This document shows positions 9,250-45,541 of a stretch of 64,000 nt of DNA, one piece after another. Origin of the DNA: Escherichia coli O127:H6 str. E2348/69 (GTDB lineage: Bacteria; Pseudomonadota; Gammaproteobacteria; Enterobacterales; Enterobacteriaceae). Below the pieces are notes generated by a model. It did no database searches and was not told where the DNA came from. It saw nothing but the letters and a program-made list of their open reading frames with translations. The stretch is from NCBI RefSeq assembly GCF_000026545.1, contig NC_011601.1, one strand, 5' to 3'. Position numbers and translations under genes: made by a program. Position 1 is the stretch's first letter, and each line of letters begins with the position of its first letter.

Positions 9250-10296
9250 ATGAAAATACTGGTGATCGGCCCGTCTTGGGTTGGCGACATGATGATGTCG
9301 CAAAGTCTCTATCGCACGCTCCAGGCGCGCTATCCCCAGGCGATAATCGACGTGATGGCACCGGCCTGGTGCCGTCCGTTATTATCGCGGATGCCGGAAG
9401 TTAACGAAGCCATCCCTATGCCCCTCGGTCACGGGGCGCTGGAAATCGGCGAACGCCGCAAGCTGGGTCATAGTCTGCGCGAAAAACGCTACGACCGTGC
9501 CTACGTCTTACCCAACTCCTTCAAATCCGCGTTAGTGCCTTTCTTCGCGGGGATCCCTCATCGCACCGGCTGGCGCGGTGAAATGCGCTACGGTTTACTC
9601 AACGATGTGCGCGTGCTCGATAAAGAAGCCTGGCCGCTAATGGTGGAACGCTATGTTGCGCTGGCCTATGACAAAGGCGTAATGCGTACCGCACAAGATC
9701 TACCAAAACCGCTGTTATGGCCGCAGTTGCAGGTGAGCGAAGGTGAAAAATCATATACCTGTAATCAATTTTCGCTTTCATCAGAACGTCCGATGATTGG
9801 TTTTTGCCCGGGGGCGGAGTTTGGTCCGGCAAAACGCTGGCCACACTACCACTATGCTGAGCTGGCAAAGCAGCTGATTGATGAAGGTTATCAGGTGGTT
9901 CTGTTTGGCTCGGCGAAAGATCATGAAGCGGGCAATGAGATTCTTGCCGCTTTGAATACCGAGCAGCAGGCATGGTGCCGGAACCTGGCGGGGGAAACAC
10001 AGCTTGATCAAGCAGTTATCCTGATTGCAGCCTGTAAAGCCATTGTCACTAACGATTCTGGCCTGATGCACGTTGCGGCGGCGCTCAATCGTCCGCTGGT
10101 TGCCCTGTATGGTCCGAGTAGCCCGGACTTCACACCGCCGCTATCCCATAAAGCGCGTGTGATCCGCCTGATTACCGGCTATCACAAAGTGCGTAAAGGT
10201 GACGCTGCGGAGGGTTATCACCAGAGCTTGATCGACATTACTCCCCAGCGCGTACTGGAAGAACTCAACGCGCTATTGTTACAAGAGGAAGCCTGA
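9250..10296 (+). CDS. waaF: LPS heptosyltransferase II
   Basis: 348-aa ORF; GT9 heptosyltransferase; recognised WaaF. Confidence 0.95.
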   Translation: MKILVIGPSWVGDMMMSQSLYRTLQARYPQAIIDVMAPAWCRPLLSRMPEVNEAIPMPLGHGALEIGERRKLGHSLREKRYDRAYVLPNSFKSALVPFFAGIPHRTGWRGEMRYGLLNDVRVLDKEAWPLMVERYVALAYDKGVMRTAQDLPKPLLWPQLQVSEGEKSYTCNQFSLSSERPMIGFCPGAEFGPAKRWPHYHYAELAKQLIDEGYQVVLFGSAKDHEAGNEILAALNTEQQAWCRNLAGETQLDQAVILIAACKAIVTNDSGLMHVAAALNRPLVALYGPSSPDFTPPLSHKARVIRLITGYHKVRKGDAAEGYHQSLIDITPQRVLEELNALLLQEEA

Positions 10297-29503: not shown

Positions 29504-30463
29504 TTACCATACCACCAGCATTCGCTTTACACCCTCCCTCGCCTGTTTAAAACCCTCATCCTCAGGATTGATTTGCAATAACCAGTTTATTCTTCCCTGC
29601 AAAGCATAAAGATACGCCGTTGCCTGTGCATGAAGATCGCCAGAAGAATCAAGCTCACCACGACGACTAAGATGCGAAATGACGCCATATTTTTGGCACA
29701 AATGTACTTCCTGACGCAGTGCCCTCCGCACTTCGCGGGCGAGTTGTGGTTTGTGATTAACAACAATCCCGGTTACTTGCTGGCGCTTACAGGCCGCGAC
29801 CAGGCAGCTTTTGCGTTGATTGAGGTTCAGGCCCAGCTCCGCTAACAATCCGCACACTTTATTTTTAACCAGGCGGGCATTGAAGTGACCGGAAAAGGTC
29901 ATGTCATCGCAGTAGCGGGTGTAGGTAATTCCCCGAGCCTGACACCATTCCCCTATGCGCTCATCAAAACGGCACATCACAAGATTGGAAATGGCAGGCG
30001 AAGTTGGTGCCCCCTGCGGTAACGCGTCGTTATAGCAACAAAGCCAGGTCAGCATGCTTACCACATTGCGTGGCAACTGGGCCTGGCGAAACACACGCCA
30101 GACCTGTAACCAGCTAATGCTATCGAAAAAGTTTTCGATATCGAGTTTCAGGATCTGCGGCTGTTGGCAGTGAGGCTGCGCATTGCTGACGATTGGGCAA
30201 CCCGGCCGGTAGGCGGTAGCAAAAGGGGAAAGAGGGAATTGTGAAAGGACGTTCTTAAGAATGTTGCGCTGTACGGTTTTGAGCAAGTAATTAGGGGCTA
30301 ACACCACCCGCTGACCGCCGTGACGCTTAGAAAGAATAATCCGTCGGTAATGGCGTGCGGCATGATTACTGAGCGCATACAGCCGCTGTATTTCTTTATC
30401 GGCGCTCCAGCCCGGCGAGCCGAACAAATCAAGCGCCAGAAGGGTTATCCGGGTAGCATCCAT
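29504..30463 (-). CDS. Retron-type reverse transcriptase
   Basis: 319 aa from ATG (ORF track gives 323 aa from an upstream GTG); RT motifs YCDDMTFSG (YxDD) and QGAPTSPAISNL; retron-typical VTG motif (QVTGIVVN); between slmA and pyrE, where K-12 has only a short intergenic palindrome. Confidence 0.85.
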   Translation of the reverse strand: MDATRITLLALDLFGSPGWSADKEIQRLYALSNHAARHYRRIILSKRHGGQRVVLAPNYLLKTVQRNILKNVLSQFPLSPFATAYRPGCPIVSNAQPHCQQPQILKLDIENFFDSISWLQVWRVFRQAQLPRNVVSMLTWLCCYNDALPQGAPTSPAISNLVMCRFDERIGEWCQARGITYTRYCDDMTFSGHFNARLVKNKVCGLLAELGLNLNQRKSCLVAACKRQQVTGIVVNHKPQLAREVRRALRQEVHLCQKYGVISHLSRRGELDSSGDLHAQATAYLYALQGRINWLLQINPEDEGFKQAREGVKRMLVVW

Positions 30464-32309: not shown

Positions 32310-33173
32310 ATGATCCGCAGTATGACCGCCTACGCCCGGCGTGAAATCAAGGGTGAATGGGGGAGCGCAACCTGGGAAATGCGCTCGGTAAACCAGCGTT
32401 ATCTGGAAACTTACTTTCGTCTGCCGGAGCAGTTCCGTAGCCTTGAACCTGTCGTTCGTGAGCGTATTCGTTCTCGCCTGACGCGCGGTAAAGTGGAATG
32501 TACCCTGCGCTATGAGCCCGATGTCAGCGCGCAAGGTGAGCTGATCCTCAACGAAAAACTGGCTAAACAGCTGGTAACTGCCGCGAACTGGGTAAAAATG
32601 CAGAGTGACGAAGGGGAAATCAACCCGGTTGATATTCTCCGCTGGCCAGGCGTGATGGCGGCCCAGGAACAGGATCTCGACGCGATTGCCGCTGAAATTC
32701 TCGCGGCGCTGGATGGTACGCTGGACGACTTTATCATCGCGCGCGAAACCGAAGGTCAGGCGCTGAAAGCATTGATCGAGCAGCGTCTGGAAGGCGTGAC
32801 CGCCGAAGTGGTCAAAGTCCGCGCCCACATGCCGGAAATCCTGCAATGGCAGCGTGAGCGTCTGGTGGCTAAGCTGGAAGACGCCCAGGTGCAACTGGAA
32901 AACAACCGTCTGGAGCAGGAGTTGGTTCTGCTGGCACAACGAATTGACGTTGCCGAAGAGTTGGACCGCCTCGAAGCGCATGTTAAAGAGACCTACAACA
33001 TTCTGAAGAAAAAAGAAGCCGTTGGTCGTCGTCTGGACTTTATGATGCAGGAGTTCAACCGCGAGTCGAACACCCTGGCCTCGAAGTCTATCAATGCCGA
33101 AGTGACTAACTCCGCCATTGAGCTGAAAGTGTTGATCGAGCAGATGCGCGAGCAGATTCAGAATATTGAATGA
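32310..33173 (+). CDS. yicC: YicC family stress-induced protein
   Basis: 287-aa ORF; synteny with rph. Confidence 0.9.
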   Translation: MIRSMTAYARREIKGEWGSATWEMRSVNQRYLETYFRLPEQFRSLEPVVRERIRSRLTRGKVECTLRYEPDVSAQGELILNEKLAKQLVTAANWVKMQSDEGEINPVDILRWPGVMAAQEQDLDAIAAEILAALDGTLDDFIIARETEGQALKALIEQRLEGVTAEVVKVRAHMPEILQWQRERLVAKLEDAQVQLENNRLEQELVLLAQRIDVAEELDRLEAHVKETYNILKKKEAVGRRLDFMMQEFNRESNTLASKSINAEVTNSAIELKVLIEQMREQIQNIE

Positions 33174-33212
33174 TTTTGCATGCTGTCGCATGAAATTGCA
33201 AAAATCCATCAT

Positions 33213-33237
33213 AGCCCGCATTTTGCGGGCTTTTTTA
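33213..33237 (+). terminator. Intrinsic terminator of yicC
   Basis: Hairpin AGCCCGC-ATTTT-GCGGGCT followed by a T-run, 40 nt past the yicC stop. Confidence 0.65.
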
Positions 33238-33281
33238 TTTTCATACTGTCGCATATGATTGCATAGCATCGCGCAAAACAT

Positions 33282-33300
33282 TTGTACCCAAGACTGTACC
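33282..33300. repeat. attL core (left copy of the 19-bp direct repeat)
   Basis: TTGTACCCAAGACTGTACC, identical to 44406..44424; 61 bp upstream of the integrase start. Confidence 0.75.
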
Positions 33301-33360
33301 TTTAATAATTTATCCAATTCATTTTGGGTACAAAATGATAGTCAATATTCAGGTGAAACT

Positions 33361-34620
33361 ATGGCAAAGCTGACAGATATCCAAATCAAGTCATGGATTA
33401 AGGCAGGAGAACGCTTCGAGGGGCGCTCTGACGGCAACGGGCTATACCTTCGCTATCGAGTGGGGGATAAAGTGCCTGTATGGCGTTTTCGATATCAGTT
33501 CGCTGGGAAATCACGGGTAATGCTTATTGGATCTTATAGCGAAATATCCCTTTCCAAAGCACGGGAAATAGCCAAGGAATTATCCGCACGTGTAGCCCTG
33601 GGCTTCGATGTCGCCGGGGAAAAGAAAGCGCGAAAAGCGGCTGCTATAGAAAAGATGGAGCGGGAGAAAAACGCGCTTCGCGTGTCAGAGCTAGCAACCG
33701 AGTATTTCGAACGGCAGATTTTGGGACGCTGGAAACATCCCGATCTTCTGCGCCGGAGAATCGATAAGGATATCAACCCACATATTGGCAACATGAAGAT
33801 AGAGGACGTAAAACCCCGTCATATTGATGCGATGCTACAGAGCGTTGTTGATCGTGGCGCTCCAACCGTAGCTAATGACGTTCTGCGCTGGACTAAACGC
33901 ATATTCGATTATGCTATCAAGCGTCATGCACTGGAATTAAACCCAGCTGGAGCATTTGATCTGTCAGACGCTGGCGGGCAGGAAAGTAGCCGTATGCGCT
34001 GGCTGACCCGTGAAGAACTTATACGTTTTTTCCAAGCTATGCGCACTGCAAAAGGATTCAGCCGCGAGAACGAGCTGACCATGAAGCTAATCCTCTGCCT
34101 GTGTTGTCGCAAAATGGAGCTGTGCGGTGCTCAGTGGGATGAATTCGACCTTGATGAAGCAGTGTGGCATCTACCAGCAGAACGCGTTAAAAACGGCGAC
34201 GCTATTGATATACCACTACCTCCACCTGCGGTTGGTTGGTTGAGAGAGCTTCGCACTATCGCGGGCAGTGGGAGTAAATGGGTTCTCCCCGCGCGGAAGA
34301 TGCAACACCGCATGATTCCCCACATTCAGGAAAGCACACTCCCAGTGGCGCTGGCAAAAGTACGCCGCGAAATGCCAGAAGTACCAAACTTCACAATTCA
34401 CGATTTCAGGCGTACCGCCCGCACCCATTTAGCGGCGTTGGGTGTCGATCCCGTAGTCGCAGAACGTTGCCTGAATCACCGCATTAAAGGCGTTGAGGGT
34501 ATCTACAACCGCCACCAGTACTTTGAAGAACGACGGGCAGCCCTGGAACTGTGGGCGGGGCTTCTGGTTTCGCTTGAACGAGGGGAAAACTACAATGTTA
34601 TTCCTTTATCTAAAATATAA
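33361..34620 (+). CDS. int: Tyrosine-type site-specific integrase (P4-like)
   Basis: ORF 33259..34620 trimmed to MAKLTDIQIKSW (419 aa); catalytic region HDFRRTARTHL and C-terminal Tyr region (GIYNRHQY). Confidence 0.9.
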   Translation: MAKLTDIQIKSWIKAGERFEGRSDGNGLYLRYRVGDKVPVWRFRYQFAGKSRVMLIGSYSEISLSKAREIAKELSARVALGFDVAGEKKARKAAAIEKMEREKNALRVSELATEYFERQILGRWKHPDLLRRRIDKDINPHIGNMKIEDVKPRHIDAMLQSVVDRGAPTVANDVLRWTKRIFDYAIKRHALELNPAGAFDLSDAGGQESSRMRWLTREELIRFFQAMRTAKGFSRENELTMKLILCLCCRKMELCGAQWDEFDLDEAVWHLPAERVKNGDAIDIPLPPPAVGWLRELRTIAGSGSKWVLPARKMQHRMIPHIQESTLPVALAKVRREMPEVPNFTIHDFRRTARTHLAALGVDPVVAERCLNHRIKGVEGIYNRHQYFEERRAALELWAGLLVSLERGENYNVIPLSKI

Positions 34621-34636
34621 AAGTTTTGTTTGAAGG

Positions 34637-34739
34637 TATTCACCCTATTCACCTTTTTAATTAACTTCATGATTTTAAATAATAAAAAAGGGTGAATACT
34701 TACAGTAAAACTAATCACCTTAGTATTCACCTGTTCACC
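34637..34739. repeat. Cluster of five TATTCACC/TGTTCACC 8-mers (putative recombinase arm-type or regulator sites)
   Basis: TATTCACC at 34637, 34646 and 34724; TGTTCACC at 34732; inverted copy GGTGAATA at 34691; directly downstream of int. Confidence 0.5.
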
Positions 34740-34817
34740 TTCTAAAGCTGCTGTGGCTGCTCCCCTTGCCCGAAAACACGCCAGCCACCAGCGTTAAAAA
34801 AAACTACAAAAATCATC

Positions 34818-34839
34818 ATCGTACAGATCTGTACGATGA
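34818..34839. promoter_or_regulatory. Perfect 22-bp palindrome, putative operator
   Basis: CATCGTACAGATCTGTACGATG in the non-coding region between int and the cargo operon. Confidence 0.4.
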
Positions 34840-35123
34840 CGCCAGCACTCACCCTACAAAACAACCTAACTTATTGATTTCAAAAGTAGAGAAAATCTGC
34901 TTTATGCCACTAGCTCGCACCCGTCCCCAAAAAGAAAAAGCCCGCGCTGGAGACGCACGGGCTTTTGGGTACCGATAACCATGTTTGGAATCAACTCATT
35001 GAGTTCTGACCTCAATTTGCATGTTATCACAAGAAAAACACATTGTAATAATTGCAACAACGAATATCATCATTGCATATAATGAAACATAAATATCCGA
35101 TAGAACATACTGAGGTCTGACCG

Positions 35124-35675
35124 ATGCAAGATATTACAAACATCGCAGTGACTGGCGAAGATGGCGTGGTGACGTATGCCGACGGCAGTAAAGAGGAGTT
35201 CCAGTGCAGCGGAACCGTTGCGACCATCATTGCAAGTCTTGCAACGACACTCGAGAAAGAACGCAAAATGCGCATCGCCACCGGCGACCGCCTGCGCCGC
35301 ATGTACACCCGCGACAGTGATATGATTTCCCGCGGTTTGAATGGCACGTCTGCTACTTCCACGGCACCGACAGCAATGAATGCTGAGTTCATGCGTCTGG
35401 TACGTGCCGTAGCGCCGAAATACGATTCAGCACTGCCCGACGCCGACCCGCGCATCGTTGCGCTCGATGTGCTGCGCTACGCCCCTGCTGAGGCGTTCAG
35501 CGCCGTACACCCTACCCCAATGTCAGAAATCCAGCTGGATCAGGCTATCGATATACTCGAGCAGGTTGGCGACTACATGAAAGCAAACAATATCGCTCCG
35601 AAAATAATTTCTACAGGAGACGCAATCCGCAGCATCAATGCTGACAACGCCACCTTCTGGGGCAAAAAACACTAA
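35124..35675 (+). CDS. Hypothetical protein (island cargo, operon gene 1)
   Basis: 183-aa ORF with no recognised domain; first of four co-directional, tightly spaced ORFs. Confidence 0.6.
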   Translation: MQDITNIAVTGEDGVVTYADGSKEEFQCSGTVATIIASLATTLEKERKMRIATGDRLRRMYTRDSDMISRGLNGTSATSTAPTAMNAEFMRLVRAVAPKYDSALPDADPRIVALDVLRYAPAEAFSAVHPTPMSEIQLDQAIDILEQVGDYMKANNIAPKIISTGDAIRSINADNATFWGKKH

Positions 35676-35688
35676 AGAGATATGAAGC

Positions 35689-35877
35689 ATGTCTATCTAT
35701 GACCCGAAATTAGCCGCAGGCAACCCACAGCGCGCCCACCGCCCAATGCTGACCCGTCAGGATCTTGAAACGGCAAAGGCACGCAATAACTTCGATCGCC
35801 AGAGTCGCAACCTGCAGCAACTCAACGAATCAAATGCACGGTTCTGGAGTGAACAGAATGAGAAAGCCAAACGTTAA
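35689..35877 (+). CDS. Hypothetical small protein (operon gene 2)
   Basis: 62-aa ORF 14 bp after gene 1. Confidence 0.45.
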   Translation: MSIYDPKLAAGNPQRAHRPMLTRQDLETAKARNNFDRQSRNLQQLNESNARFWSEQNEKAKR

Positions 35878-36034
35878 GCCGGTCCTGCTGTCCGCCGAGC
35901 AGATGCAGGCCATACGCAACATTCAGGAACGTGAACGCCAGCGCTCCAATCTCGGCGTCGCTCCCACCGTTCACCAGATTGCCCGCGGCCTCATGGCTAA
36001 GGCTCTGGCCTCACTGGCAAGCGAGGGCGCGTAA
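35858..36034 (+). CDS. Hypothetical small protein (operon gene 3; start uncertain)
   Basis: ORF track gives 35765..36034; trimmed to ATG 35858, which has GGAG 9 nt upstream; stop overlaps the next start (TAATG). Confidence 0.35.
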   Translation: MRKPNVKPVLLSAEQMQAIRNIQERERQRSNLGVAPTVHQIARGLMAKALASLASEGA

Positions 36035-36765
36035 TGGGCGCCATTCACCAGATATATGAGCAGGAAATGTTCTATAACTGGATAGGCGATGGTAAACGAT
36101 GTGTAGCATTCCACGAAGCGGGCCATGCAGTAGCCGCATGGCTTATTCGCTTAGATATGCAGGTTATCGCCATTATGGATGAATCCGGCTACGTTGCTGG
36201 CGAACATGTACATGAAGCCCAGTGTTTGGGCGTTGTTAAACACGGCATAATCCACAGCCACGATCTCAGGCGTTTGCGGGAGAGTAAATCTGGTGTAGTT
36301 GGGCACGATGGCAAAGTTATCCCTTTCATACGCTACTACGCGGAAGGTATAAAGCGCGATGCAACAAAGGCCGCTTTTGTAGCCCTCGCTGGACCAGTAA
36401 GCGAAGCCATTTACGAAAATAACGAAATTTTCAATATAAAGTATTCACTCCCTCACCGCTATGACATGGCTAACGTAAATGACATGCTCGATTTAATATG
36501 TGCCACGGATAAGCGAATTAACAGGAAGTTAATGCTTTCTAAACTTGTTGAAAAGACCAAATTCCTCATGACTCAATACTGGCCGGAAGTAGGAAAAATA
36601 GCGCATTTGCTTGAGCGGGATAACATTGTTAATGGCCGCGATGTTAGCTCGCTAATCGGCCTCAACGTCATTGACCGGGCAACGCCATTTTTGGTATCTG
36701 ACTTGAGCAGTACATTTGCTCATCTCCCGTACTCGTCCCTGCCTCCGAATGAATTAGCAACTTGA
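36034..36765 (+). CDS. FtsH-like (M41-type) zinc metallopeptidase-domain protein lacking ATPase and membrane modules
   Basis: 243 aa; HEAGH zinc-binding motif (AFHEAGHAVAAW) and downstream LAGPVSEAIY segment resembling the FtsH protease domain; no Walker motifs. Confidence 0.65.
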   Translation: MGAIHQIYEQEMFYNWIGDGKRCVAFHEAGHAVAAWLIRLDMQVIAIMDESGYVAGEHVHEAQCLGVVKHGIIHSHDLRRLRESKSGVVGHDGKVIPFIRYYAEGIKRDATKAAFVALAGPVSEAIYENNEIFNIKYSLPHRYDMANVNDMLDLICATDKRINRKLMLSKLVEKTKFLMTQYWPEVGKIAHLLERDNIVNGRDVSSLIGLNVIDRATPFLVSDLSSTFAHLPYSSLPPNELAT

Positions 36766-36776
36766 AGACAGTAAAG

Positions 36777-36803
36777 TAGCCATGCATTTAACACGCATGG
36801 CTA
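36777..36803. terminator. Hairpin between convergent cargo operons (putative bidirectional terminator)
   Basis: 9-bp perfect stem TAGCCATGC / GCATGGCTA with a 9-nt loop, between the stops at 36765 (+) and 36813 (-). Confidence 0.45.
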
Positions 36804-36812
36804 TGTGAACAT

Positions 36813-38036
36813 TTAAGAATTAGAGCGCTTAGGCGATCGCGTAAATTGCACTAAAGCCCCTTTATGATCGTTAGCCTGCACATCACGATGCTCAACCAAC
36901 ATAGATTTTAATTTTGCCAGATGCACAACAGCAGCCTTCTTGCCAGTCAGGTACCCCTCGGGCAAACCAGCAATCATTTCCACATCAATAGCAGATAAAC
37001 CTGCGAATGCAGCAAGCCGTTCAACTGAAATGATTCCAGACGATGCCAGCAATTCAATAGTACGTTTCAACAAACGTGGTTTTTCAGGCTCACGATAATC
37101 ATCTCCCGGCTCTGATTTCGCTCCCCAACGTGCTGAACGACGCTTATAAAGATTTTGTTTCTCTTCTTCCGTAATAATATGCAGCACATGTAAACGCATG
37201 ATACTTGCCGCAACGGAAATACCATAGCGTTGTTTAATTAAAAGCAAGCTATCTAATGTTACCGGGGTCCTAATTTCTTCGGCAAATGTCTCAGCAGGAA
37301 GCAGCAGTGCTCCCGCAAATTTATGAGCCTGACTTTCCTTCAGCTTATAACGTTCGGCTTCGAGTTCGTTGCCAACATAGCGGTGAAGGATCAGATGACC
37401 AATTTCGTGAGCAAGGTCAAATCTGCTACGAAAAGCATTACCTTTATCTGAAGAGAGGAGAACAAAAGGAACACCTAAAGTCTCACTCCAGGCAGAAAGC
37501 CCTTCAATCTGCGCAACGCCTGTTTCTTCTCTAATAACGATAATACCATTACTCTCTGCGGCTAAAGCAAGATCCGGTATTTCCTTTGTACCAAGATTCC
37601 AAAGAGCACGGCACTCATTAGCAGCGTCTTCAATATCTGCATCACTAATTTCATCAATGTTTGTAAAGCTACGACGCGGTAGTTTTAGCTCCGGCAGATC
37701 TACAAACTCAGTCAGCTTAGTAACTAACTCATTAGCCCAATGGATTCGAGTTTCTAACATTGCTCGTGCAGCTACATGAGCTGATGCATTGCTTCTGAAC
37801 AGAGGCTTTGACATCCCCTTCAACAGAGGGCGCGTAAACCATTCAGGTGTAACATTTACGACAGTGGCCAGACGTTCTAAAGCCTCAGACTCTGGAGCCT
37901 GTTGACCGGAACGCCATTTGCTAATGGTTGCTGGTGATACACCCACCATAGTAGCTAATTGAGTTTGTGATAGCCGCCGGGCGGCTAGTACCTGTGCTAA
38001 CCTGCCCGGTTGAAATTCGGCGACGCCTCGGCTCAT
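36813..38036 (-). CDS. Fused HTH-XRE / ImmA-IrrE-type (M78-like) zinc metallopeptidase protein
   Basis: 407 aa; N-terminal XRE helix-turn-helix (LSQTQLATMVGVSPATISKWRSG); central HExxH motif (LAHEIGHLILH); start overlaps the upstream gene stop by 4 bp. Confidence 0.8.
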   Translation of the reverse strand: MSRGVAEFQPGRLAQVLAARRLSQTQLATMVGVSPATISKWRSGQQAPESEALERLATVVNVTPEWFTRPLLKGMSKPLFRSNASAHVAARAMLETRIHWANELVTKLTEFVDLPELKLPRRSFTNIDEISDADIEDAANECRALWNLGTKEIPDLALAAESNGIIVIREETGVAQIEGLSAWSETLGVPFVLLSSDKGNAFRSRFDLAHEIGHLILHRYVGNELEAERYKLKESQAHKFAGALLLPAETFAEEIRTPVTLDSLLLIKQRYGISVAASIMRLHVLHIITEEEKQNLYKRRSARWGAKSEPGDDYREPEKPRLLKRTIELLASSGIISVERLAAFAGLSAIDVEMIAGLPEGYLTGKKAAVVHLAKLKSMLVEHRDVQANDHKGALVQFTRSPKRSNS

Positions 38037-38680
38037 ACATTATCTTCCTCGGTTCCATCTTTTCTGATAATGCCCCTTTTGAGCCCAGGGAATGCATTAT
38101 CTTCTTGGGACGGAACTACATCATATCGGGTTAAAAAAAGTTCAAGTGGCTCATGAAAAACCCAGCGCTTCCCATCAGAACTTGGTACAACAAGCTCTAT
38201 AGACATCGGAGCTTCAGGCTGAATCTGCAACGAACCGGAAAAACGGCATACTACGAACAGTGTAGCTTTTGGCACATCAGAACCATCGGAGAATAAATCC
38301 GGTTGCACCATTTTTTCCACAAACACGTTCTCAGAAATGAGTTCTTGCTTACGTTTGCTACGGAATAATCTCTTCCACTGGTTATCATTGTAGCTTTCAC
38401 GAACAATCGTGAATATACCACTATGGCCTTCTACAATACGGTTACCACGCAGCTTTCCAGGATTACAACCGTTGGCCTCAAACACCTCATAAATAGTTTC
38501 ATTCAGGTTTAAATGACGATCATAACCAAGCGCGGTCGATCTGTGATCTAGCTTCTTCTTTTGAGCATAATCGTAAGAACGCTTTGATGCCGCGTAAATC
38601 GCGTCAGAAAGGGCCATGAAGAGTTGTTTTGAAACATTCTGAACGATGAGATCTGCCACTTTGGATTTTTTCACGACCAT
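38033..38680 (-). CDS. Hypothetical protein, co-operonic with the HTH-peptidase gene
   Basis: 215-aa ORF; AGGAA just upstream of the ATG; no recognised domain. Confidence 0.65.
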   Translation of the reverse strand: MVVKKSKVADLIVQNVSKQLFMALSDAIYAASKRSYDYAQKKKLDHRSTALGYDRHLNLNETIYEVFEANGCNPGKLRGNRIVEGHSGIFTIVRESYNDNQWKRLFRSKRKQELISENVFVEKMVQPDLFSDGSDVPKATLFVVCRFSGSLQIQPEAPMSIELVVPSSDGKRWVFHEPLELFLTRYDVVPSQEDNAFPGLKRGIIRKDGTEEDNV

Positions 38681-39209
38681 TTCCTATCACTGTCACTGAT
38701 AGCCGTGATTTTATATCAGTATTTTTTCGTGTGTCCATAACGCAATCAATTATTTTTTCCTTTGTCAGCAAGAATTATATAAAAAGCACTATCATGACAG
38801 GATTTGGGCCACTAACCTTTCACAGACTCTTGAAGTCCTAGAAAAAAGCAATGGCACAAGGTGTCCTTGCCGGGAGAAAAATCATCTGGCTACCAGCAAC
38901 CTTATAGATTCCAGATCAACGTAATATCAAAGTAAAACGTCCATTTCCGGTACCATATTTGGTCATTACGACGGGGGAAACTTATACCCACTGCTGCCCC
39001 ATCGTCAGCGCCGACAGGGACCTATGCCGCAAGGTATAAGGCAAAATTGGCATTTTCGCTATTCCCCCTGCCCGTATTTTTTGGCTTACTGGAATTTCTC
39101 TATCTAACACAATGAACTTGAGGCTATTCCGACAGGGAGAAAAGCGATCTACGCCTGACCGCCTGCCTCAGCAATCATCCAGGCAAGTACGTGTGTAAGG
39201 CTAACGCGA

Positions 39210-39890
39210 ATGAGTGATTTTTATTCCCCTCTACCAAGCTATGATCTTGTCCGGGCAGCGGAGATGCTGACTGATAAGGGGGCAAATTGTACCGGTAACG
39301 ATTTATTGGAACTATGGAACCAAGGCGTTATCGAGTTGTGTTTTTCTCTGCCGGACTACATTGCTTGTGAAGATGTTAATTTTCCCGGGCATGGTCACAG
39401 CATTTTGTTATCCGTGGATCCGATTAGCTTCAACCTTTTCTGGCTAAATGTTGATTACCCACCGAACTTAAATGCTAACTTTTCTGTGAAAGAATATGGC
39501 TCAGATAGTGAATTCCATGAGCAGTCCCTATGGATACCAACAGAACCGCACTACAACACTCACCATGATAACGGGGAAGGGCTTTGCGAAGCGTTAAGGA
39601 ATACTTATGGCCGGGAAAATTTACGAATACCAGGTGTCGAATTGCAAAAGGTTTGGCGCTTTTTGATCGGTCAGCCTTATGAAAAAAAGCCAACGCCTGA
39701 GCGTATCACCGCTAAGCAATGCCGCTTTATCGTCGCATTACTCAGATCGTATAACCTGACTGACGATGATTTTAAGGGGAGCATTAGGGACCTGAGAATT
39801 AAGATATCTAACCGGATCCCTTCAATCGGTGATCCTGAAATCGATGATAATACCCTTACTGACTGGCTGAAGAAGGGAGGGGTTCGGTAG
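39210..39890 (+). CDS. Hypothetical protein (island cargo, orphan)
   Basis: 226-aa ORF with no recognised domain; divergent from the 38680 operon. Confidence 0.6.
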   Translation: MSDFYSPLPSYDLVRAAEMLTDKGANCTGNDLLELWNQGVIELCFSLPDYIACEDVNFPGHGHSILLSVDPISFNLFWLNVDYPPNLNANFSVKEYGSDSEFHEQSLWIPTEPHYNTHHDNGEGLCEALRNTYGRENLRIPGVELQKVWRFLIGQPYEKKPTPERITAKQCRFIVALLRSYNLTDDDFKGSIRDLRIKISNRIPSIGDPEIDDNTLTDWLKKGGVR

Positions 39891-39992
39891 CTGAGTTTTC
39901 ATAACTCCGATGAGTTTTCAATAACTCCCCCACCCGTAACCACCTACCCCGTAGCCTTGCGATTACCTTCTCACTCAATAGCAGGTAATCGC

Positions 39993-40205
39993 ATGAAATC
40001 GCAAACTTTCACCTTTCCTACCAATGGCAACGCACGAGCCAAACAAGTGGCGCACTATCTTGGAGTGCATATCAGCACCGTATGGCGCTATGCAAAACGT
40101 CCTGATTTTCCAAAACCCCACCAGTTAACCGACGGCGTGACCGTCTTTGACGCCGCAGCTATTCGCCAATGGAACAAGCAAAAAACCGGGGGTGAGAATG
40201 CTTAA
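39993..40205 (+). CDS. alpA: AlpA-family phage transcriptional regulator / excisionase-like protein
   Basis: ORF 39957..40205 trimmed to MKSQTFTF (70 aa); HTH segment AKQVAHYLGVHISTVWRYAKRPDFPKP typical of AlpA/Vis. Confidence 0.7.
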   Translation: MKSQTFTFPTNGNARAKQVAHYLGVHISTVWRYAKRPDFPKPHQLTDGVTVFDAAAIRQWNKQKTGGENA

Positions 40206-40259
40206 CGCGACCGTGAGCACACCCTGCACGACAGCCGTTCGATCTCCATTGTTGGCGGG

Positions 40260-40454
40260 TCAGGCTTTCGGCTCAATACCCAGCCGCTGGAGTTCTTTGC
40301 GCCCCAAGGTTTTCATCCAATTAGCTAAACTCATACCTGCATCTCGTGCGGCGGCCTCGAATTGCTCTTTCAATTCTGGGGCGATCCTCACTTGGAAAGC
40401 TGGTGCCTTTCCCCTGCCTTTGGGCTGTTTATCACGCTGTATTACTGTTGACAT
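40260..40454 (-). CDS. Putative ribbon-helix-helix DNA-binding protein
   Basis: ORF 40260..40547 trimmed to MSTVIQRD (64 aa); beta-strand plus two-helix pattern (FQVRIAPELKEQFEAAARDAGMSLANWM). Confidence 0.45.
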   Translation of the reverse strand: MSTVIQRDKQPKGRGKAPAFQVRIAPELKEQFEAAARDAGMSLANWMKTLGRKELQRLGIEPKA

Positions 40455-40588
40455 GTATGTACCTATTAAACTAAGATTCAAATCAATAGGTACGCACCTT
40501 AACATGTTAAGGTCAGAAAAGACAACGCCCCGTAGTGCTCGCAACACATACGGGGCGTCTAACCAACAACGTTACGGAGACTAACGCT

Positions 40589-40789
40589 ATGGCTAAGCCG
40601 CAGTGTACCCAAACTCACCCCAAATATCAGTATCGTTTTATGGCGCTCGATCGCGCTGACCGCCAGGCAAAACCCTGCAAAATCATTGTTGAGGCCACCA
40701 GCGAGCATGAAGCACGTAAGGTGTTGGCACCTCACTACATCCTGTCACTGTCCGCCGTTTTGCCAGTTCAGGAGGTGAGCCATGTTTAA
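40589..40789 (+). CDS. Hypothetical protein (replication-module operon)
   Basis: ORF 40535..40789 trimmed to ATG 40589, which follows GGAGA; 66 aa. Confidence 0.4.
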   Translation: MAKPQCTQTHPKYQYRFMALDRADRQAKPCKIIVEATSEHEARKVLAPHYILSLSAVLPVQEVSHV

Positions 40790-40976
40790 TGTCATTGTCA
40801 CGGTCACCTATCACTTTTCGGGAACGATCCGTCGTTTTGCTATTCCGGAACGTTTCAATAATCGTGAGCTCGCAGAGAAAGCGGCGCAGCAGTTAACCCA
40901 TACCAGCTATCTGGATGATGGAGTGAGCAGAATTGTGACCCACGCGGCGGAAGTAGTGGAGGTGCGCCATGTATGA
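40782..40976 (+). CDS. Hypothetical protein (replication-module operon)
   Basis: 64-aa ORF whose start overlaps the upstream stop. Confidence 0.4.
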   Translation: MFNVIVTVTYHFSGTIRRFAIPERFNNRELAEKAAQQLTHTSYLDDGVSRIVTHAAEVVEVRHV

Positions 40977-41157
40977 CGCCTACCTGAACCCAAAGGACGC
41001 ACTCCGTCCGATCGCCGTTGCACTCGAGGCTGCGCAGTTTATCGCGCTTGACCCGGAGAATACCGATTTAGCCCATGAGCTGATCGCCTGGGCACTTGAA
41101 ACAGCCGCGCGTGCCTCAGCTGCGCAACGTAACACCCCGGAGGTGGACAATGCTTAA
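40969..41157 (+). CDS. Hypothetical protein (replication-module operon)
   Basis: 62-aa ORF whose start overlaps the upstream stop. Confidence 0.4.
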   Translation: MYDAYLNPKDALRPIAVALEAAQFIALDPENTDLAHELIAWALETAARASAAQRNTPEVDNA

Positions 41158-41458
41158 TCTCAATACATGGAATCTTTTCACGCTGCCGCTGAACGGTGGC
41201 GCAGCTGAGACAGCGCCGGACGATCTGCGTCTGCTGGCCGCTGTGGGGGACGAGGCTCGCAACAACTACCTGCGCGGTGTAAGCGCCATCGGCAATCTGA
41301 TCTTCTGGGCATGTGATAACCCCAACTACACCGACCATCAAGCTGACCTGCCAGCGCTGGGCGCATTCCTGAAACATACCGCTGATATGGCGCGCGCTGC
41401 CGAATTCATGGCAGGACATCTGGACTCACTGGCTGACGGCAAAGAGGGAGGCAAATAA
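41150..41458 (+). CDS. Hypothetical protein (replication-module operon)
   Basis: ORF 41096..41458 trimmed to ATG 41150, which follows GGAGGTGG; 102 aa. Confidence 0.45.
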   Translation: MLNLNTWNLFTLPLNGGAAETAPDDLRLLAAVGDEARNNYLRGVSAIGNLIFWACDNPNYTDHQADLPALGAFLKHTADMARAAEFMAGHLDSLADGKEGGK

Positions 41459-41679
41459 TGCCACGCAAACATCGCTCATCAAGCAACCTGATCAAATTAA
41501 TGGAACGCCAGAAAGGTATAGGGCGCGACGATATCCAGATCGCAGATAATCGCCCTACATTCATGCCGTACGAGCCGAACGGAACCTACGCTACAAACCG
41601 CCATACCCGCCGTATGCTACGCAAGCTCCACGGCATCCAGGCAAAAAGAATGTGTGATCTGAAAGGAGGTCAGAAATGA
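41458..41679 (+). CDS. Hypothetical protein (replication-module operon)
   Basis: 73-aa ORF; stop overlaps the primase start. Confidence 0.45.
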   Translation: MPRKHRSSSNLIKLMERQKGIGRDDIQIADNRPTFMPYEPNGTYATNRHTRRMLRKLHGIQAKRMCDLKGGQK

Positions 41680-44090
41680 GTGGATTCGATCACCTGATGG
41701 AGCAGGGGCAGAAACGCACCCCTGCTCGTTTTACTGCAAATAGCTTTTCTGACCTGTGCAACGCTATTCTATCGCATCGTGTGCAAATTTCCATCACACA
41801 GGAAATGACGGATGAAGAACGGCGCAAAGAAAAGCAGAAACTGTACTGGTTCTCGGCAACTACCCAGCAGGACGGGCAGCGACGTAAACCCGAAAACATG
41901 GCACCGTGTGCTTTCGGTATGCTGGACATTGACGGCAGCACTCCCGGTGCAATCACAGCACTTGTACAGGTGTTCCGGCGATACTCAATGCTGGTGTACC
42001 AGACGGCCAGCTATACGACGGATGAACCTCGTCTGCGTATTGTGTGCGAGCTTTCCCGAGCGGTTGAATCTGACTACCGCCGAGCGACAGGCGAATCCAT
42101 AGAAACTTTGTTGATGCAGGAGGCTGGATTCTCATTCGCCAGCCTGGCGGATAAGAAAGCACGCTGGGAGAACGGCAGCGATTATGTTGTCTTTGACCGC
42201 AATGTATACGGCGCTCAAAGCTATTGCTACTGTCCACACACTGGAGCGAAAGCCCAGAATTACGCGGGCGCGGTAATCGACGTAGGGGCGTTACCGGAAC
42301 CCGCCCAGCCACCAGCGAAGGCGGCCAAAAGCAAGGCAAAGAAACAGCGCCAGCGTGACGCCGCGGCGGTAATAGATGCTGATTTTGACGATCTGAGCGC
42401 CGGACCGGATAACTTCCTTATCGCCGACCTGCGCAGCGCACTCTGGTTTCCCTCCATGCTGCAAAAGGCATGGGACAATGGGGCGTGGATTGAGCAGGGC
42501 TACCGCCTTGCATCTCTCAAAGGCACCGATTTTGAGGACGACGCGCGGCAACTGTGGGTCGAGTGGTCATTGACCGCAGCGGATGGCTGGCCTGATGAAG
42601 AACTTGATGAAGTCGCGGCACAACGCTGGAATGGTCTCGCCCCTGACAAAACCAGCTATAAAGCTATTTTTACTGATGCTCAGGCGCAGGGGTGGAATAA
42701 TCCGGGCAAATGGCGAGCAAAGGCCGCGTACATTGAGAAAATGGCCCCCAGCACACGCGGTGAACTGCTGGCGCAATATTACGGCAACGTATGCCTGAAA
42801 GCTGATGGCAACATGGTTTATCACTATACCGGGCAGGTGTGGGAGCACATCGCCGATGCCGAGTTGCGCCGCCAGCTTTCGCAGATTTTCAAAGATAACG
42901 GGGTCCCCTTTACACCGTACGAGGTTAAAAGCGCGATTGAGGCTATGGGAATGCTTCTGCCTTTAATGGGAGAAACTCCTCGTAACCTGATTGGCTTTGC
43001 CAACGGCGTTTATGATCTCGAGGCGCAGCGATTCCGCCCCCACTGCCCAGACGATTGGCTGACCAGCCATAACGGCGTTGAATACACGCAGCCGGTTAAA
43101 GGCGAAACCCTGAAAAACAATGCCCCAAACTTCTGGCGCTGGCTGCATCATTCCGCAGGGGGCGACTTCGACAAAATGGAGAGAATCAAAGCCGCTCTGT
43201 ATATGGTGCTGGCAAACCGCTACGACTGGCAACTGTTCATCGAGGTTACCGGTGCTGGTGGCAGTGGTAAAAGCGTGTTCACGGGTATTGCACGTATGCT
43301 GACGGGCGAACTACACGCCACCAGCGGCACAATGGAGGACATGGACACCGCGCGCGAACGCGCATCTTTTGTCGGCAAAAGCCTGATCACCCTACCCGAC
43401 CAAGCAACATATACGGGTTCCGGGCCGGGTATCAAGGCTATAACGGGCGGCGACGTGGTAAGGATCGACCCAAAGCACGAAAAGCCATTCCATACGGTTA
43501 TTCGCGCCGTTGTCATCGCAACAAACAACGAACCTATGCGTTTCACCGAACGACAAGGCGGGATATCGCGGCGCCGGGTTATTTTCCCGTTTAACCATGA
43601 AGTGCCGGAGGCGGAACGTGATCCCCATCTGCTCGATAAAATTAAAGCCGAACTGCCGGTAATCGTCCGTGGTCTGCTGATTGACTTCGAACAGCCAGGC
43701 AAAGCCAAATCGCTACTTATCGCGCAGCGTGATTCAGCGGAAGCGCTGCAGGTGAAGAACGATAACGACCCGATGTATGGCTTTTGCTCTTACCTGCTAG
43801 GTTTGCCGAATCCCGAGGGCATGTACATGGGCGATGGGCGCATGGCGCGAGAGCCACGCATCTACCTCTATCATGCTTATCTGGCCTATCTGGAAGCCTA
43901 CGGTTATCAGAGAACCCCCACCCTACCGAAGTTCAGCGGAGATTTACGGGACACGCTCAAAGCCTTTGGTATTACTCTGGACAGTAAAAAGAGTAAAAAG
44001 GGCAAAAGATATAACGTCAATTTGTCTGACAGGGCACAAGAATGGCTGGGAGAAGACGAACTCTCAGCTGTGCCCGACACATTGCAGTAA
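41676..44090 (+). CDS. P4 alpha-like primase-helicase
   Basis: 804 aa; Walker A GAGGSGKS in the C-terminal half (SF3/D5-type helicase); last gene of a translationally coupled operon. Confidence 0.85.
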   Translation: MSGFDHLMEQGQKRTPARFTANSFSDLCNAILSHRVQISITQEMTDEERRKEKQKLYWFSATTQQDGQRRKPENMAPCAFGMLDIDGSTPGAITALVQVFRRYSMLVYQTASYTTDEPRLRIVCELSRAVESDYRRATGESIETLLMQEAGFSFASLADKKARWENGSDYVVFDRNVYGAQSYCYCPHTGAKAQNYAGAVIDVGALPEPAQPPAKAAKSKAKKQRQRDAAAVIDADFDDLSAGPDNFLIADLRSALWFPSMLQKAWDNGAWIEQGYRLASLKGTDFEDDARQLWVEWSLTAADGWPDEELDEVAAQRWNGLAPDKTSYKAIFTDAQAQGWNNPGKWRAKAAYIEKMAPSTRGELLAQYYGNVCLKADGNMVYHYTGQVWEHIADAELRRQLSQIFKDNGVPFTPYEVKSAIEAMGMLLPLMGETPRNLIGFANGVYDLEAQRFRPHCPDDWLTSHNGVEYTQPVKGETLKNNAPNFWRWLHHSAGGDFDKMERIKAALYMVLANRYDWQLFIEVTGAGGSGKSVFTGIARMLTGELHATSGTMEDMDTARERASFVGKSLITLPDQATYTGSGPGIKAITGGDVVRIDPKHEKPFHTVIRAVVIATNNEPMRFTERQGGISRRRVIFPFNHEVPEAERDPHLLDKIKAELPVIVRGLLIDFEQPGKAKSLLIAQRDSAEALQVKNDNDPMYGFCSYLLGLPNPEGMYMGDGRMAREPRIYLYHAYLAYLEAYGYQRTPTLPKFSGDLRDTLKAFGITLDSKKSKKGKRYNVNLSDRAQEWLGEDELSAVPDTLQ

Positions 44091-44108
44091 CTTGTAAAAA
44101 ATCACCAA

Positions 44109-44133
44109 GAACCCCGTAAATCGGGGTTTTTGT
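44109..44133 (+). terminator. Intrinsic terminator after the primase gene
   Basis: Hairpin ACCCCG-TAAAT-CGGGGT followed by TTTTT, 20 nt past the stop. Confidence 0.6.
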
Positions 44134-44150
44134 CTATTTATTAGTCTGAA

Positions 44151-44255
44151 AGGGTGAACAGGTGCGCATACCTTAACAAAGCTGTTCACTCTAATAATTT
44201 TCTTTAATATCAGTACACTACCCGCAATAAGTGAACAGATGGACGGGGTGAACAC
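44151..44255. repeat. Cluster of GTGAACA motifs near the right island end
   Basis: GGTGAACA at 44153 and 44248, GTGAACAG at 44231, inverted copy TGTTCAC at 44183; related to the left-end TGTTCACC/TATTCACC cluster. Confidence 0.45.
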
Positions 44256-44405
44256 TTCACACCTATAGCGCGAAATATTTTAATATTTGCAGTTGAATTG
44301 CAATCCTTGAAAACAGAAACGCGTAGCAAAACGTAGAGTGCTGAAAAAATTTTGTTGGGGAGCAGTTCAAACTGCATGAGCAATTTTCAAGCACTCCTCT
44401 TTGTC

Positions 44406-44424
44406 TTGTACCCAAGACTGTACC
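44406..44424. repeat. attR core (right copy of the 19-bp direct repeat)
   Basis: TTGTACCCAAGACTGTACC, identical to 33282..33300. Confidence 0.75.
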
Positions 44425-44655
44425 CAATAGAAAAAATAGAAAATAAAAACTCAGCAATAGCAGCGATTGGTTACACTACTCAACATTCAGATTCAACTCG
44501 TAACGCCAATTCTTACTTTTCAGCCTTCACAAATGCCGCCCACTCAAACAGAGCGGCATTTTTCTTCCCCGCAACTTCAATTCTGTTTTGCGTGCCTGCT
44601 CCAGATTTTGCGATGTTTTTTTGCCCAGCGCAGTGAGAACGTGAGATACTCACAA

Positions 44656-44671
44656 CTGTATATAAACACAG
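44656..44671 (+). promoter_or_regulatory. LexA (SOS) box in the dinD promoter
   Basis: CTGTATATAAACACAG matches CTGT-N8-ACAG, ~45 bp upstream of dinD. Confidence 0.75.
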
Positions 44672-44716
44672 TTGTAGACTTACTTTCCTTGCAATCGATA
44701 TCACATGGAGTGGGCA

Positions 44717-45541
44717 ATGAACGAACATCATCAACCTTTTGAAGAGATAAAGCTGATTAATGCAAACGGAGCAGAACAATGGTCAGCAAGACAACTTGGG
44801 AAACTACTGGGTTATTCAGAGTATCGTCACTTTATACCTGTATTAACGCGCGCCAAAGAAGCTTGTCTGAATAGTGGTCACACAATTGATGACCATTTCG
44901 AGGAGATCCTCGATATGATCAAAATTGGCTCAAATGCCAAAAGAGCATTAAAAGACATCGTACTCTCCCGCTATGCCTGTTACCTGGTAGTACAAAACGG
45001 CGACCCTGCGAAACCGGTTATTGCGGCAGGGCAAACTTATTTTGCTATCCAGACCCGACGGCAGGAGCTGGCTGACGATGAAGCTTTCAGGCAACTTCGT
45101 GAAGACGAAAAGCGTCTTTTTCTGAGAAATGAGTTGAAAGAACATAACAAACAATTAGTTGAGGCAGCGCAGCAAGCTGGGGTAGCGACAGCTATCGATT
45201 TCGCCATATTTCAGAATCATGGTTACCGGGGGCTGTATGGTGGATTAGATCAGAAAGCCATCCATCAGCGGAAGGGGCTGAAAAAGAGTCAGAAGATCCT
45301 GGATCATATGGGTTCAACAGAACTGGCGGCTAATCTCTTTCGAGCTACCCAAACAGAAGAAAAACTCAAGCGGGATGGCGTGAATTCAAAACAGCAAGCT
45401 AACACCACACACTTTGACGTGGGTCGCAAGGTGAGGCAAACCATTCAGGAACTTGGCGGAACCATGCCTGAGGAGTTGCCGACCCCGCAGGTCAACATCA
45501 AGCAGTTGGAAAACAGTGTAAAAATTACAGAGAAGAAATAG
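44717..45541 (+). CDS. dinD: DNA damage-inducible protein D
   Basis: ORF 44705..45541 trimmed to MNEHHQPFEE (274 aa); LexA box upstream. Confidence 0.85.
   Translation: MNEHHQPFEEIKLINANGAEQWSARQLGKLLGYSEYRHFIPVLTRAKEACLNSGHTIDDHFEEILDMIKIGSNAKRALKDIVLSRYACYLVVQNGDPAKPVIAAGQTYFAIQTRRQELADDEAFRQLREDEKRLFLRNELKEHNKQLVEAAQQAGVATAIDFAIFQNHGYRGLYGGLDQKAIHQRKGLKKSQKILDHMGSTELAANLFRATQTEEKLKRDGVNSKQQANTTHFDVGRKVRQTIQELGGTMPEELPTPQVNIKQLENSVKITEKK

Follow-up and report, generated by a model that had tools for sequence, protein, structure and literature searches.

A hypothetical protein encoded between the int-alpA motif RNA and alpA is a possible regulator of alpA in satellite islands of Enterobacterales

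AlpA is the activator that is induced by the helper phage in Gram-negative PICIs (PMC6092414). How the helper induces alpA in these elements and in the PICMIs, and whether a repressor exists, have been stated to be unknown (PMC6092414, PMC10803314). The Gram-negative PICIs were reported without an identified repressor (PMC6092414), and the PICMI study raises the question of how the early regulon is activated by the helper (PMC10803314). In EcCIMP1, the promoter region of alpA responds to the helper phage of this element (PMC11773190). The PICMIs of Vibrio carry between int and alpA a gene, iolg/icg, which falls into 13 families and is needed for excision (PMC10803314). A structured RNA, the int-alpA RNA motif, was found by comparative genomics (Weinberg et al. 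2017, PMC5737381). Rfam files it, under RF02996, as an sRNA gene, and a search of the literature by the name of the RNA found no published function for it.

The DNA analysed here, which we call the window, is a stretch of 64,000 nucleotides of Escherichia coli O127:H6 str. E2348/69 (NC_011601.1). It contains an island in which a single ORF on the plus strand (39210-39890, ATG start) encodes a protein of 226 amino acids. The ORF listing and the RefSeq CDS agree on this gene, the product of which is the hypothetical protein WP_001279444.1; we refer to this protein and to its family as X. The preliminary description of the locus placed the gene upstream of alpA, and alpA (39993-40205), annotated in RefSeq as an AlpA-family regulator/excisionase, is indeed found downstream of X on the same strand. 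The divergent operon that had been described on the other side of X is also present: it consists of two minus-strand genes, which PADLOC identifies as RmrT (38033-38680, E=8e-16) and RmrA (36813-38036, 413.6 bits) of the Rosmer system. The upstream region of about 530 bp that had been attributed to X as its own exists as a gap of 529 bp (38681-39209), but it is not empty, since it holds an RF02996 RNA (39117-39184) and a conserved non-coding block of 285 bp (38833-39116, plus strand) that is 85% identical in two related loci, L007 and L009. This block has no integrase similarity by tblastn, which rules it out as an integrase relic; it is possibly the promoter region of X. A scan of the plus strand for consensus sigma-70 promoters and terminators found nothing useful. 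The stretch 38681-40210 is 100% identical to NZ_CP059840.2.

According to RefSeq, the island of E2348/69 is bounded by yicC and dinD. Its left end, adjoining yicC, is formed by the gene of a P4-type tyrosine integrase (33361-34620, plus strand), which is followed by four small cargo genes (35124-36765, plus strand) and by the Rosmer pair; 3' of alpA, the annotation continues with a small gene on the minus strand, an Icd-like gene, small ORFs and the gene of a P4-type primase. With int, alpA and the primase gene in one orientation, an Icd-like gene and chromosomal flanks on both sides, the island is of the Gram-negative PICI type; in EcCICFT073, int, alpA, the small gene on the minus strand, the Icd-like gene and the primase gene come in the same order. 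In the window, 4.5 kb of cargo separates int from the RNA, X and alpA, with the order kept. The usual order is int, RNA, X and alpA, and it is compact in four other loci (L011, L013, L019 and L020), where int abuts the RNA directly, ending about 30 nt before it, and is followed by X and alpA. Such compact loci are often found at the same yicC site, and L019 and L020 share the int-yicC junction. The cargo hotspot of this island family is the interval from int to the RNA and not the position of X, a displacement that matters for the mining of defence islands.

In every context examined, X lies directly upstream of alpA and on the same strand. These contexts include Salmonella islands with a P4-type primase, elements with DUF927 primases, one element in which alpA is followed by Ogr/Delta, and Aeromonas-type elements with AntA; the slot between the RF02996 RNA and alpA is kept across different primases, integration sites and hosts. 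Among loci collected via the RNA, and not via the X protein, an ORF matching the AlpA profile begins 96-169 nt past the X stop codon at all 16 loci with enough sequence, compared with 4 of the 50 loci in which another gene lies downstream of the RNA. The preliminary description had put X in a variable cargo position of the island and offered a defence or exclusion function for it. This does not agree with a protein that has no match in PADLOC, is locked between the RF02996 RNA and alpA, and lies outside the interval between int and the RNA where the cargo is found. The same description had raised strict conservation in this position, which would make X a backbone gene. The slot is indeed fixed wherever X occurs, but X itself is absent from the model PICIs EcCICFT073 and EcCIMP1, which have int and alpA, and it is consequently an optional module in a fixed place rather than a universal part of the backbone. 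Within E. coli, the X region is present in only 7 of 5,426 complete genomes (99.8-100% identical), and the exact protein was seen on 408 contigs. Ten further complete E. coli genomes share alpA; a short way upstream of this gene, at about 39949-39955, they part from the sequence of the window, and the same slot holds a different gene of 272-275 amino acids, which is a relative of X.

The lack of any recognisable domain in X was borne out by Pfam, PHROGs, NCBIfam, PADLOC and the PDB sequences. No match was found in Pfam even at E<=10, in PHROGs and NCBIfam, among the defence families of PADLOC-DB 2.0 at E<=1 (0 families), or in a profile search of the PDB sequences. The same was true of a tblastn search of 50,697 phage records, of a Foldseek comparison with viral structures and of a Pfam search with 65 relatives of X. 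A literature search with the accessions of X-family proteins found no functional information. X is an orphan as far as annotated domains are concerned, but it does belong to a family: among 1.84 billion representatives, the X profile matches 137 clusters (50% identity) at E<=1e-3, all of their members being annotated as hypothetical. The family ranges over the Enterobacterales and Aeromonas; the genera named, besides Aeromonas, are Escherichia, Klebsiella, Enterobacter, Citrobacter, Salmonella, Serratia, Edwardsiella, Morganella and Xenorhabdus, and one truncated Xenorhabdus copy was recovered in a profile scan of genome contigs.

Comparison with orthologues of 92% identity from other genera gave an overall dN/dS of 0.11-0.13 for X. 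Orthologues of the same length, 226 amino acids, were found in Klebsiella and Enterobacter (dN/dS of about 0.12). By segment, the ratio is 0.04 in the N-terminal domain, 0.18-0.20 in the middle and 0.06-0.08 in the C-terminal domain. These values indicate that X is under purifying selection. Together with the 137 clusters of the deep profile search, they show X to be a genuine gene and not a chance ORF, and, judged by its sequence, X is functional and conserved.

Three segments can be distinguished in X: an acidic N-terminal domain (residues 1-48), predicted to be a MerR/Xis-like winged helix, a divergent, beta-rich middle (residues 49-160), and a basic, four-helix C-terminal domain (residues 161-226), which in the window is of type A. 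Two AlphaFold models, of the window protein and of a 307-amino-acid relative from L020, agree. They contain a confident strand-helix-helix-strand unit at the N-terminus, a poorly defined beta-rich middle and a C-terminal domain of four helices (pLDDT 93-97). The homologues of X are mosaic, two types of N-terminal and middle segments (1 and 2) being combined with two types of C-terminal domain (A and B) in all four ways, and longer relatives of about 320 amino acids share only both ends. The median pI is 9.4 for the C-terminal domain, about 5.1 for the N-terminal domain (4.05 in the window) and about 5.3 for the whole protein. In the helix of the N-terminal domain, which reads E-x-E-D-I-F-H-W, the usual basic residues of a recognition helix are replaced; AlpA proteins, with a pI of 8.9-10.9, are unlike this acidic domain. 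The MerR, HTH_17 and Phage_AlpA profiles (PF13411, PF12728 and PF05930) found no match in X at E<=10 or in its 65 relatives. Alignment of the N-terminal domain with the AlpA alignment by hhalign was weak (probability of 23%), and the C-terminal domain aligned by this method neither with AlpA nor with the N-terminal domain of X.

The coding sequence of X is followed on the plus strand by two imperfect dyad repeats, identified by repeat finding and pattern matching: O1 (CTGAGTTTTCATAACTCCG, 39891-39909), which begins at the X stop, and O2 (TGAGTTTTCAATAACTCCCCC, 39911-39931). Tandem repeats are present after the stop codon in every X locus compared, and their sequence differs with the type of the C-terminal domain. 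Domains of type A are accompanied by GGAGTTTT..AACTCC dyads, those of type A' by CGGAATTAT..ATAATTCCG, and those of type B by CGCCGGAATATTC..GTTCCGGCG plus GGAATAT; with other types, the repeats are GATAGTAAA..TTTACTATC, direct repeats of CACCGGTAA, or GGATTT..AAATCC. Over 16 loci, the distance between repeats correlates with that between the C-terminal domains of X (Mantel r 0.77, p=2e-4), and shows no significant correlation with the distance between AlpA proteins (r 0.07) or between the 45 nt proximal to alpA (r 0.055), although the repeats physically adjoin both of their flanks. The A and B types of repeat are found with the alpA types in all four combinations (the window, L004, L002/L009 and L007), and AlpA is ruled out as the binder of the repeats by this independence.

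Several variants of the repeats (L150, L185) are direct repeats without a stem. This argues against RNA hairpins, and sites in the DNA fit better. We infer that the C-terminal domain of X confers specificity in DNA binding, with the repeats as its candidate sites. The main caveat is plain physical linkage, which could explain the co-variation because the repeats begin 0-5 nt past the X stop.

Between the repeats and alpA, an inverted repeat on the plus strand (39958-39993) forms a hairpin that encloses the Shine-Dalgarno sequence of alpA together with the first base of its ATG. Its arms of 14 nt (39958-39971 and 39980-39993) are 93% complementary, and its folding energy of -17.5 kcal/mol (z = -4.1) was equalled by none of 200 shuffled sequences. 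Equivalent hairpins, with several different arm sequences, are present in all 11 X loci examined (-12 to -23 kcal/mol), and the same region in two PICIs without X folds weakly (-9 kcal/mol). Immediately upstream of the hairpin, the weakly conserved hexamer TAGCCT (39952-39957, plus strand) is a candidate -10 element of an alpA promoter. In the window and in L004, the sequence TA(G/A)CCT is found 21 nt after O2; in L002, L007 and L009, its distance from the last half-site of type B is 14 nt. The promoter scan did not call the hexamer at 39952-39957. If TAGCCT is the -10 element, the centres of O2 and O1 would fall near -44 and -65, respectively, and transcription would start inside the 5' arm of the hairpin. 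Sites near -44 and -65 are more typical of activators.

On the other side of X, the RF02996 RNA (39117-39184, plus strand) was detected by cmscan with 39.4 bits, against a gathering threshold of 35.8, as a full-length match (model positions 1-71) to an element of 68 nt. It ends 25 nt before the ATG of X and forms the 5' leader of this gene. The element consists of a closing stem and two internal hairpins, the stems of which are reproduced by the MFE fold, and its genomic context in the window, with int upstream and alpA downstream, is that of the motif. RF02996 is likewise found just upstream of X in L002, L004, L007, L008, L009, L013 and L015, and weakly in L011; it was not detected in EcCIMP1, which lacks X. 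The window RNA is a weak copy (39.4 bits compared with 50.9 in L007), with an A.C mismatch in hairpin 2. The thermodynamic z-score of the X leader is not significant, and support for the RNA is comparative. An ungapped core pattern of 16 bases retrieved more than 100 further instances of RF02996 from IMG/VR contigs; a looser first DNA pattern had been dropped, as it gave mostly chance matches. In the IMG/VR set, X follows the RNA in 19 of 72 cases and diverse genes take its place in the others, and since many unrelated genes are also preceded by the RNA, it is not specific to X. On sequence criteria, the RNA is a member of RF02996, and X stands outside any defined protein family.

Alignment of these instances revealed that two stretches farther downstream are complementary to the loop of hairpin 2 and change along with it. 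For example, the loop GAAUCC pairs with GGAUUC and GAUUC, the loop UCUCAUCAC with GUGAUGA and UGAUGAGA, and the loop AUAUACCG with CGGUAU and GGUAUAU. We compared 40 distinct loops, one representative each, with 500 permutations of the loop-to-downstream pairings. The best complementary run was 6.03 nt on average, compared with 3.75 +/- 0.28 in the permuted controls (maximum 4.44), and a second, non-overlapping run was 4.75 nt, compared with 2.08 +/- 0.33 (maximum 3.05). The first of the two target sequences (box 1) lies about 7 nt past the closing stem, and the second (box 2) about 22 nt past it. The end of box 2 is separated from the start codon by a median of 7 nt (interquartile range 4.5-10; 31 loop types) and by 15 nt or less in 30 of the 31 cases, which is the position of a Shine-Dalgarno sequence.

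In the window, loop 2 (about 39149-39158) is complementary over 5 nt to box 1, CAGGC (39180-39184). Box 2, AAGGC (39197-39201), is the Shine-Dalgarno sequence of X; here the match to the loop, AGGC, is only 4 nt long and lies within the Shine-Dalgarno sequence. In the MFE fold, a hairpin CGUGU/ACGCG (39190-39208) presents the X Shine-Dalgarno; like loop 2 and both boxes, it is on the plus strand. One loop with two mutually exclusive partners, one of them a ribosome-binding site, looks like the logic of a translational switch. A cis-regulatory role for RF02996 is suggested by this locus, and the two-target complementarity is spread across many unrelated mobile elements.

The locus thus has the form of a control cassette, in the order RF02996 leader, X, two tandem repeats, ribosome-binding-site hairpin and alpA. 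Because X always lies between a structured RNA and alpA, it is probably part of the alpA switch, and not cargo or a defence gene. The explanation that we prefer, and to which we give a little less than an even chance, is that X is an RNA-gated, site-specific regulator of alpA. Translation of X would be gated by the leader: a pseudoknot of loop 2 with box 1 would leave the ribosome-binding site free, and the alternative pairing of loop 2 with box 2 would cover the X Shine-Dalgarno. The basic helical C-terminal domain of X would then bind the repeats at its own stop codon and so set the activity of the downstream alpA promoter. We slightly favour activation over repression, as the repeats would lie near -44 and -65 of a promoter without a -35 element. 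Since the hairpin buries the alpA ribosome-binding site, transcripts reading through from upstream (from int or X) would yield no AlpA, and those starting inside the 5' arm of the hairpin would escape this block. The acidic N-terminal domain and the fast-evolving middle would probably bind a partner or a signal, such as a helper-phage protein, Int or AlpA. A life-cycle regulator of the island was among the roles proposed at the outset for this gene, and it fits the putative RNA-gated ribosome-binding site, the repeats that co-vary with the C-terminal domain and the hairpin over the alpA ribosome-binding site.

It is tempting to extend this proposal to a helper-sensing switch used by a subset of Gram-negative satellites, in which the middle of X would sense a helper product, the C-terminal domain would turn on alpA via the operators, and the RNA, as an antisense-like gate, would keep X untranslated until infection. 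We consider this extension unlikely as it stands; if true, it would explain concretely how alpA is switched on in these elements. As a general explanation X fails, because EcCICFT073 and EcCIMP1 induce alpA without X or the RNA (PMC6092414, PMC11773190).

Other roles for X can be imagined. X could be an excision cofactor, the counterpart of iolg/icg of the PICMIs, acting on DNA in a complex with Int and AlpA rather than on transcription. This seems to us improbable to a similar degree: the N-terminal domain is acidic and devoid of the basic recognition-helix residues, the repeats that track X adjoin alpA, at a distance from the attachment site of at least 1.3 kb (in the window, about 6 kb), and int is separated from X by the RNA and, here, by the 4.5 kb of cargo.

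Rather less probable is a role as an early effector directed against the helper phage or the host, by an antirepressor or interference activity, and silenced by an antisense-like immunity RNA. X would then precede alpA merely as the first gene of the early operon, and another protein would bind the repeats. Neither the adjacency of X and alpA (16/16 against 4/50) nor the co-variation of C-terminal domain and repeats would be explained in this way. Moreover, the repeats vary in step with no other candidate binder, neither with AlpA nor with the small gene on the minus strand 3' of alpA, of which the window and L002 have identical copies.

We regard it as very unlikely that X is cargo, with a defence or exclusion function of its own. 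Such a role would fit its proximity to the Rosmer system in the window, L002 and L004, the variability of its middle domain and the fact that satellites are known to carry defence genes. However, no defence family of PADLOC matches X, its N- and C-terminal domains are under strong purifying selection, and cargo is inserted upstream of the RNA and not at X. In addition, the slot with the RNA and alpA is kept in loci without adjacent defence genes (L008, L011, L013, L019 and L020). Finally, we give hardly any credence to the idea that X of the window is the remnant of a decaying cassette in a degraded island, without current function: it is the shortest member of a family of otherwise 250-330 amino acids, its RNA has a mismatch and the lowest score, and the RefSeq annotation of the island lacks packaging genes, but its ORF is intact, the 7 complete genomes are 99.8-100% identical, the protein occurs on 408 contigs, and orthologues of 226 amino acids with a dN/dS of about 0.12 exist in Klebsiella and Enterobacter.

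With X as a regulator of alpA for the best explanation, what would be new here is a satellite life-cycle switch made from an undescribed protein family and an RNA motif without assigned function. The putative target, AlpA, acts as master activator in both the PICMIs and the Gram-negative PICIs; the cassette, of about 900 bp, is directly testable.

The RNA component of the cassette resembles RF02996 as described, since the window element has the three-stem architecture of the Rfam model and lies between int and alpA. It differs in being, here, the 5' leader of a specific protein family, with a loop 2 whose complementarity extends beyond box 1, where the Rfam model ends, to the box at the ribosome-binding site. 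X is the positional counterpart of iolg/icg in the Enterobacterales: it too is co-oriented between int and alpA (L011, L013, L019 and L020, and the window with cargo intervening). However, X has a structured RNA in front of it, and iolg an overlap of 1-13 nt with int; neither an RNA leader nor operator repeats are reported for the PICMIs (PMC10803314). From the MerR/excisionase superfamily (Xis, AlpA, TorI) X differs in the absence of a profile match and in an acidic N-terminal domain without a basic recognition helix. This superfamily of winged-helix proteins includes CbpM, which does not bind DNA.

The immunity RNAs c4 of phages P1 and P7 and CI of satellite P4 are released from a leader by cleavage, and their loops pair with target sites around the ribosome-binding site of the gene that follows; in P1, c4 RNA silences icd/ant. 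The X leader is similar in that its loop is complementary to two sites in its own transcript, of which one falls on the ribosome-binding site of the first early gene, and in that it occurs in elements of the P4/PICI type. In the X leader, however, both targets are downstream of the RNA. The C4 model (RF01695) found no match at E<=1 in the region 33000-45000, and copies of C4 and isrK are found elsewhere in the related elements L010, L013 and L016.

In Gram-positive PICIs (SaPIs), the master repressors are Stl and Rpr. Like these proteins, X is encoded by the satellite beside an activation or excision gene, is proposed to combine a DNA-binding module with cognate sites, and contains a segment of high divergence as a possible sensor of a helper protein. 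It has no relationship to them in sequence or fold, and its arrangement is different: X and alpA are read in the same direction instead of diverging, the repeats are downstream of X, and the candidate sites are placed no less suitably for an activator than for a repressor.

The int-alpA RNA (Rfam RF02996), which forms the 5' leader of the 226-aa gene X in this island, is also frequent in viral and satellite contigs (IMG/VR loci L144-L258, e.g. L148, L157, L164, L178 and L233). The first genes behind it in these loci are many and mutually unrelated, yet throughout the set a single loop is complementary to both boxes, with box 2 lying on the ribosome-binding site. Because of this combination, we regard RF02996 as a general putative gate that is not specific to X. 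By eye, the N-termini encoded behind the RNA include DUF1376-like and zinc-finger 'GKRFG.LTV' types, among others.

Immediately 5' of the RNA lies a 285-bp non-coding block (38833-39116, plus strand), conserved at 85% identity in L007 and L009, elements that otherwise differ. A promoter scan detected no consensus promoter in this block, and its interpretation as an integrase relic was rejected by tblastn. Further upstream, the 'HTH-peptidase operon' of the preliminary description, adjoining X, is, by its PADLOC matches, a Rosmer defence system, RmrA/RmrT (36813-38680, minus strand; RmrA 413.6 bits, RmrT E=8e-16). In related islands (L002, L004, L009, L259 and L260), different RmrA/RmrT-like pairs or split HTH_3 and Peptidase_M78 gene pairs occupy this interval 5' of the RNA. 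The four-gene block following int recurs in related islands (L002, L003 and L004); it includes a 243-aa ORF (36034-36765, plus strand) with a metalloprotease-type HEAGH motif, for which PADLOC gave no match. Upstream of the island, adjoining pyrE, a reverse transcriptase family protein, a candidate retron or defence-associated reverse transcriptase, is annotated in RefSeq (~29681-30463, minus strand).

In Xenorhabdus yunnanensis (L010 8004-8399), X is truncated to 131 aa of its C-terminal part, and 3' of it one GGAGTTTTTAAAAACTCC dyad, the hairpin at the alpA ribosome-binding site and alpA itself are all retained, in that order. Downstream of alpA, adjoining C4 antisense (RF01695) and isrK (RF01394) RNAs are present in this element (9753-9974), in L013 (10720-10947) and in L016 (16600-16827), overlapping Ash-family genes in the latter two; the island in the window carries neither RNA.

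Within 40260-40588, a small minus-strand gene (40260-40454), ribbon-helix-helix-like in appearance, is divergent from the Icd-like/primase operon. In the intergenic region shared by the two, the palindromes GTACCTATT...AATAGGTAC and TTAACATGTTAA were noticed by eye. The gene product and the palindromes could act as repressor and operator of the replication operon. The counterpart of the small gene in EcCICFT073, a PICI devoid of X, is annotated as a member of the YlcI/YnfO family.
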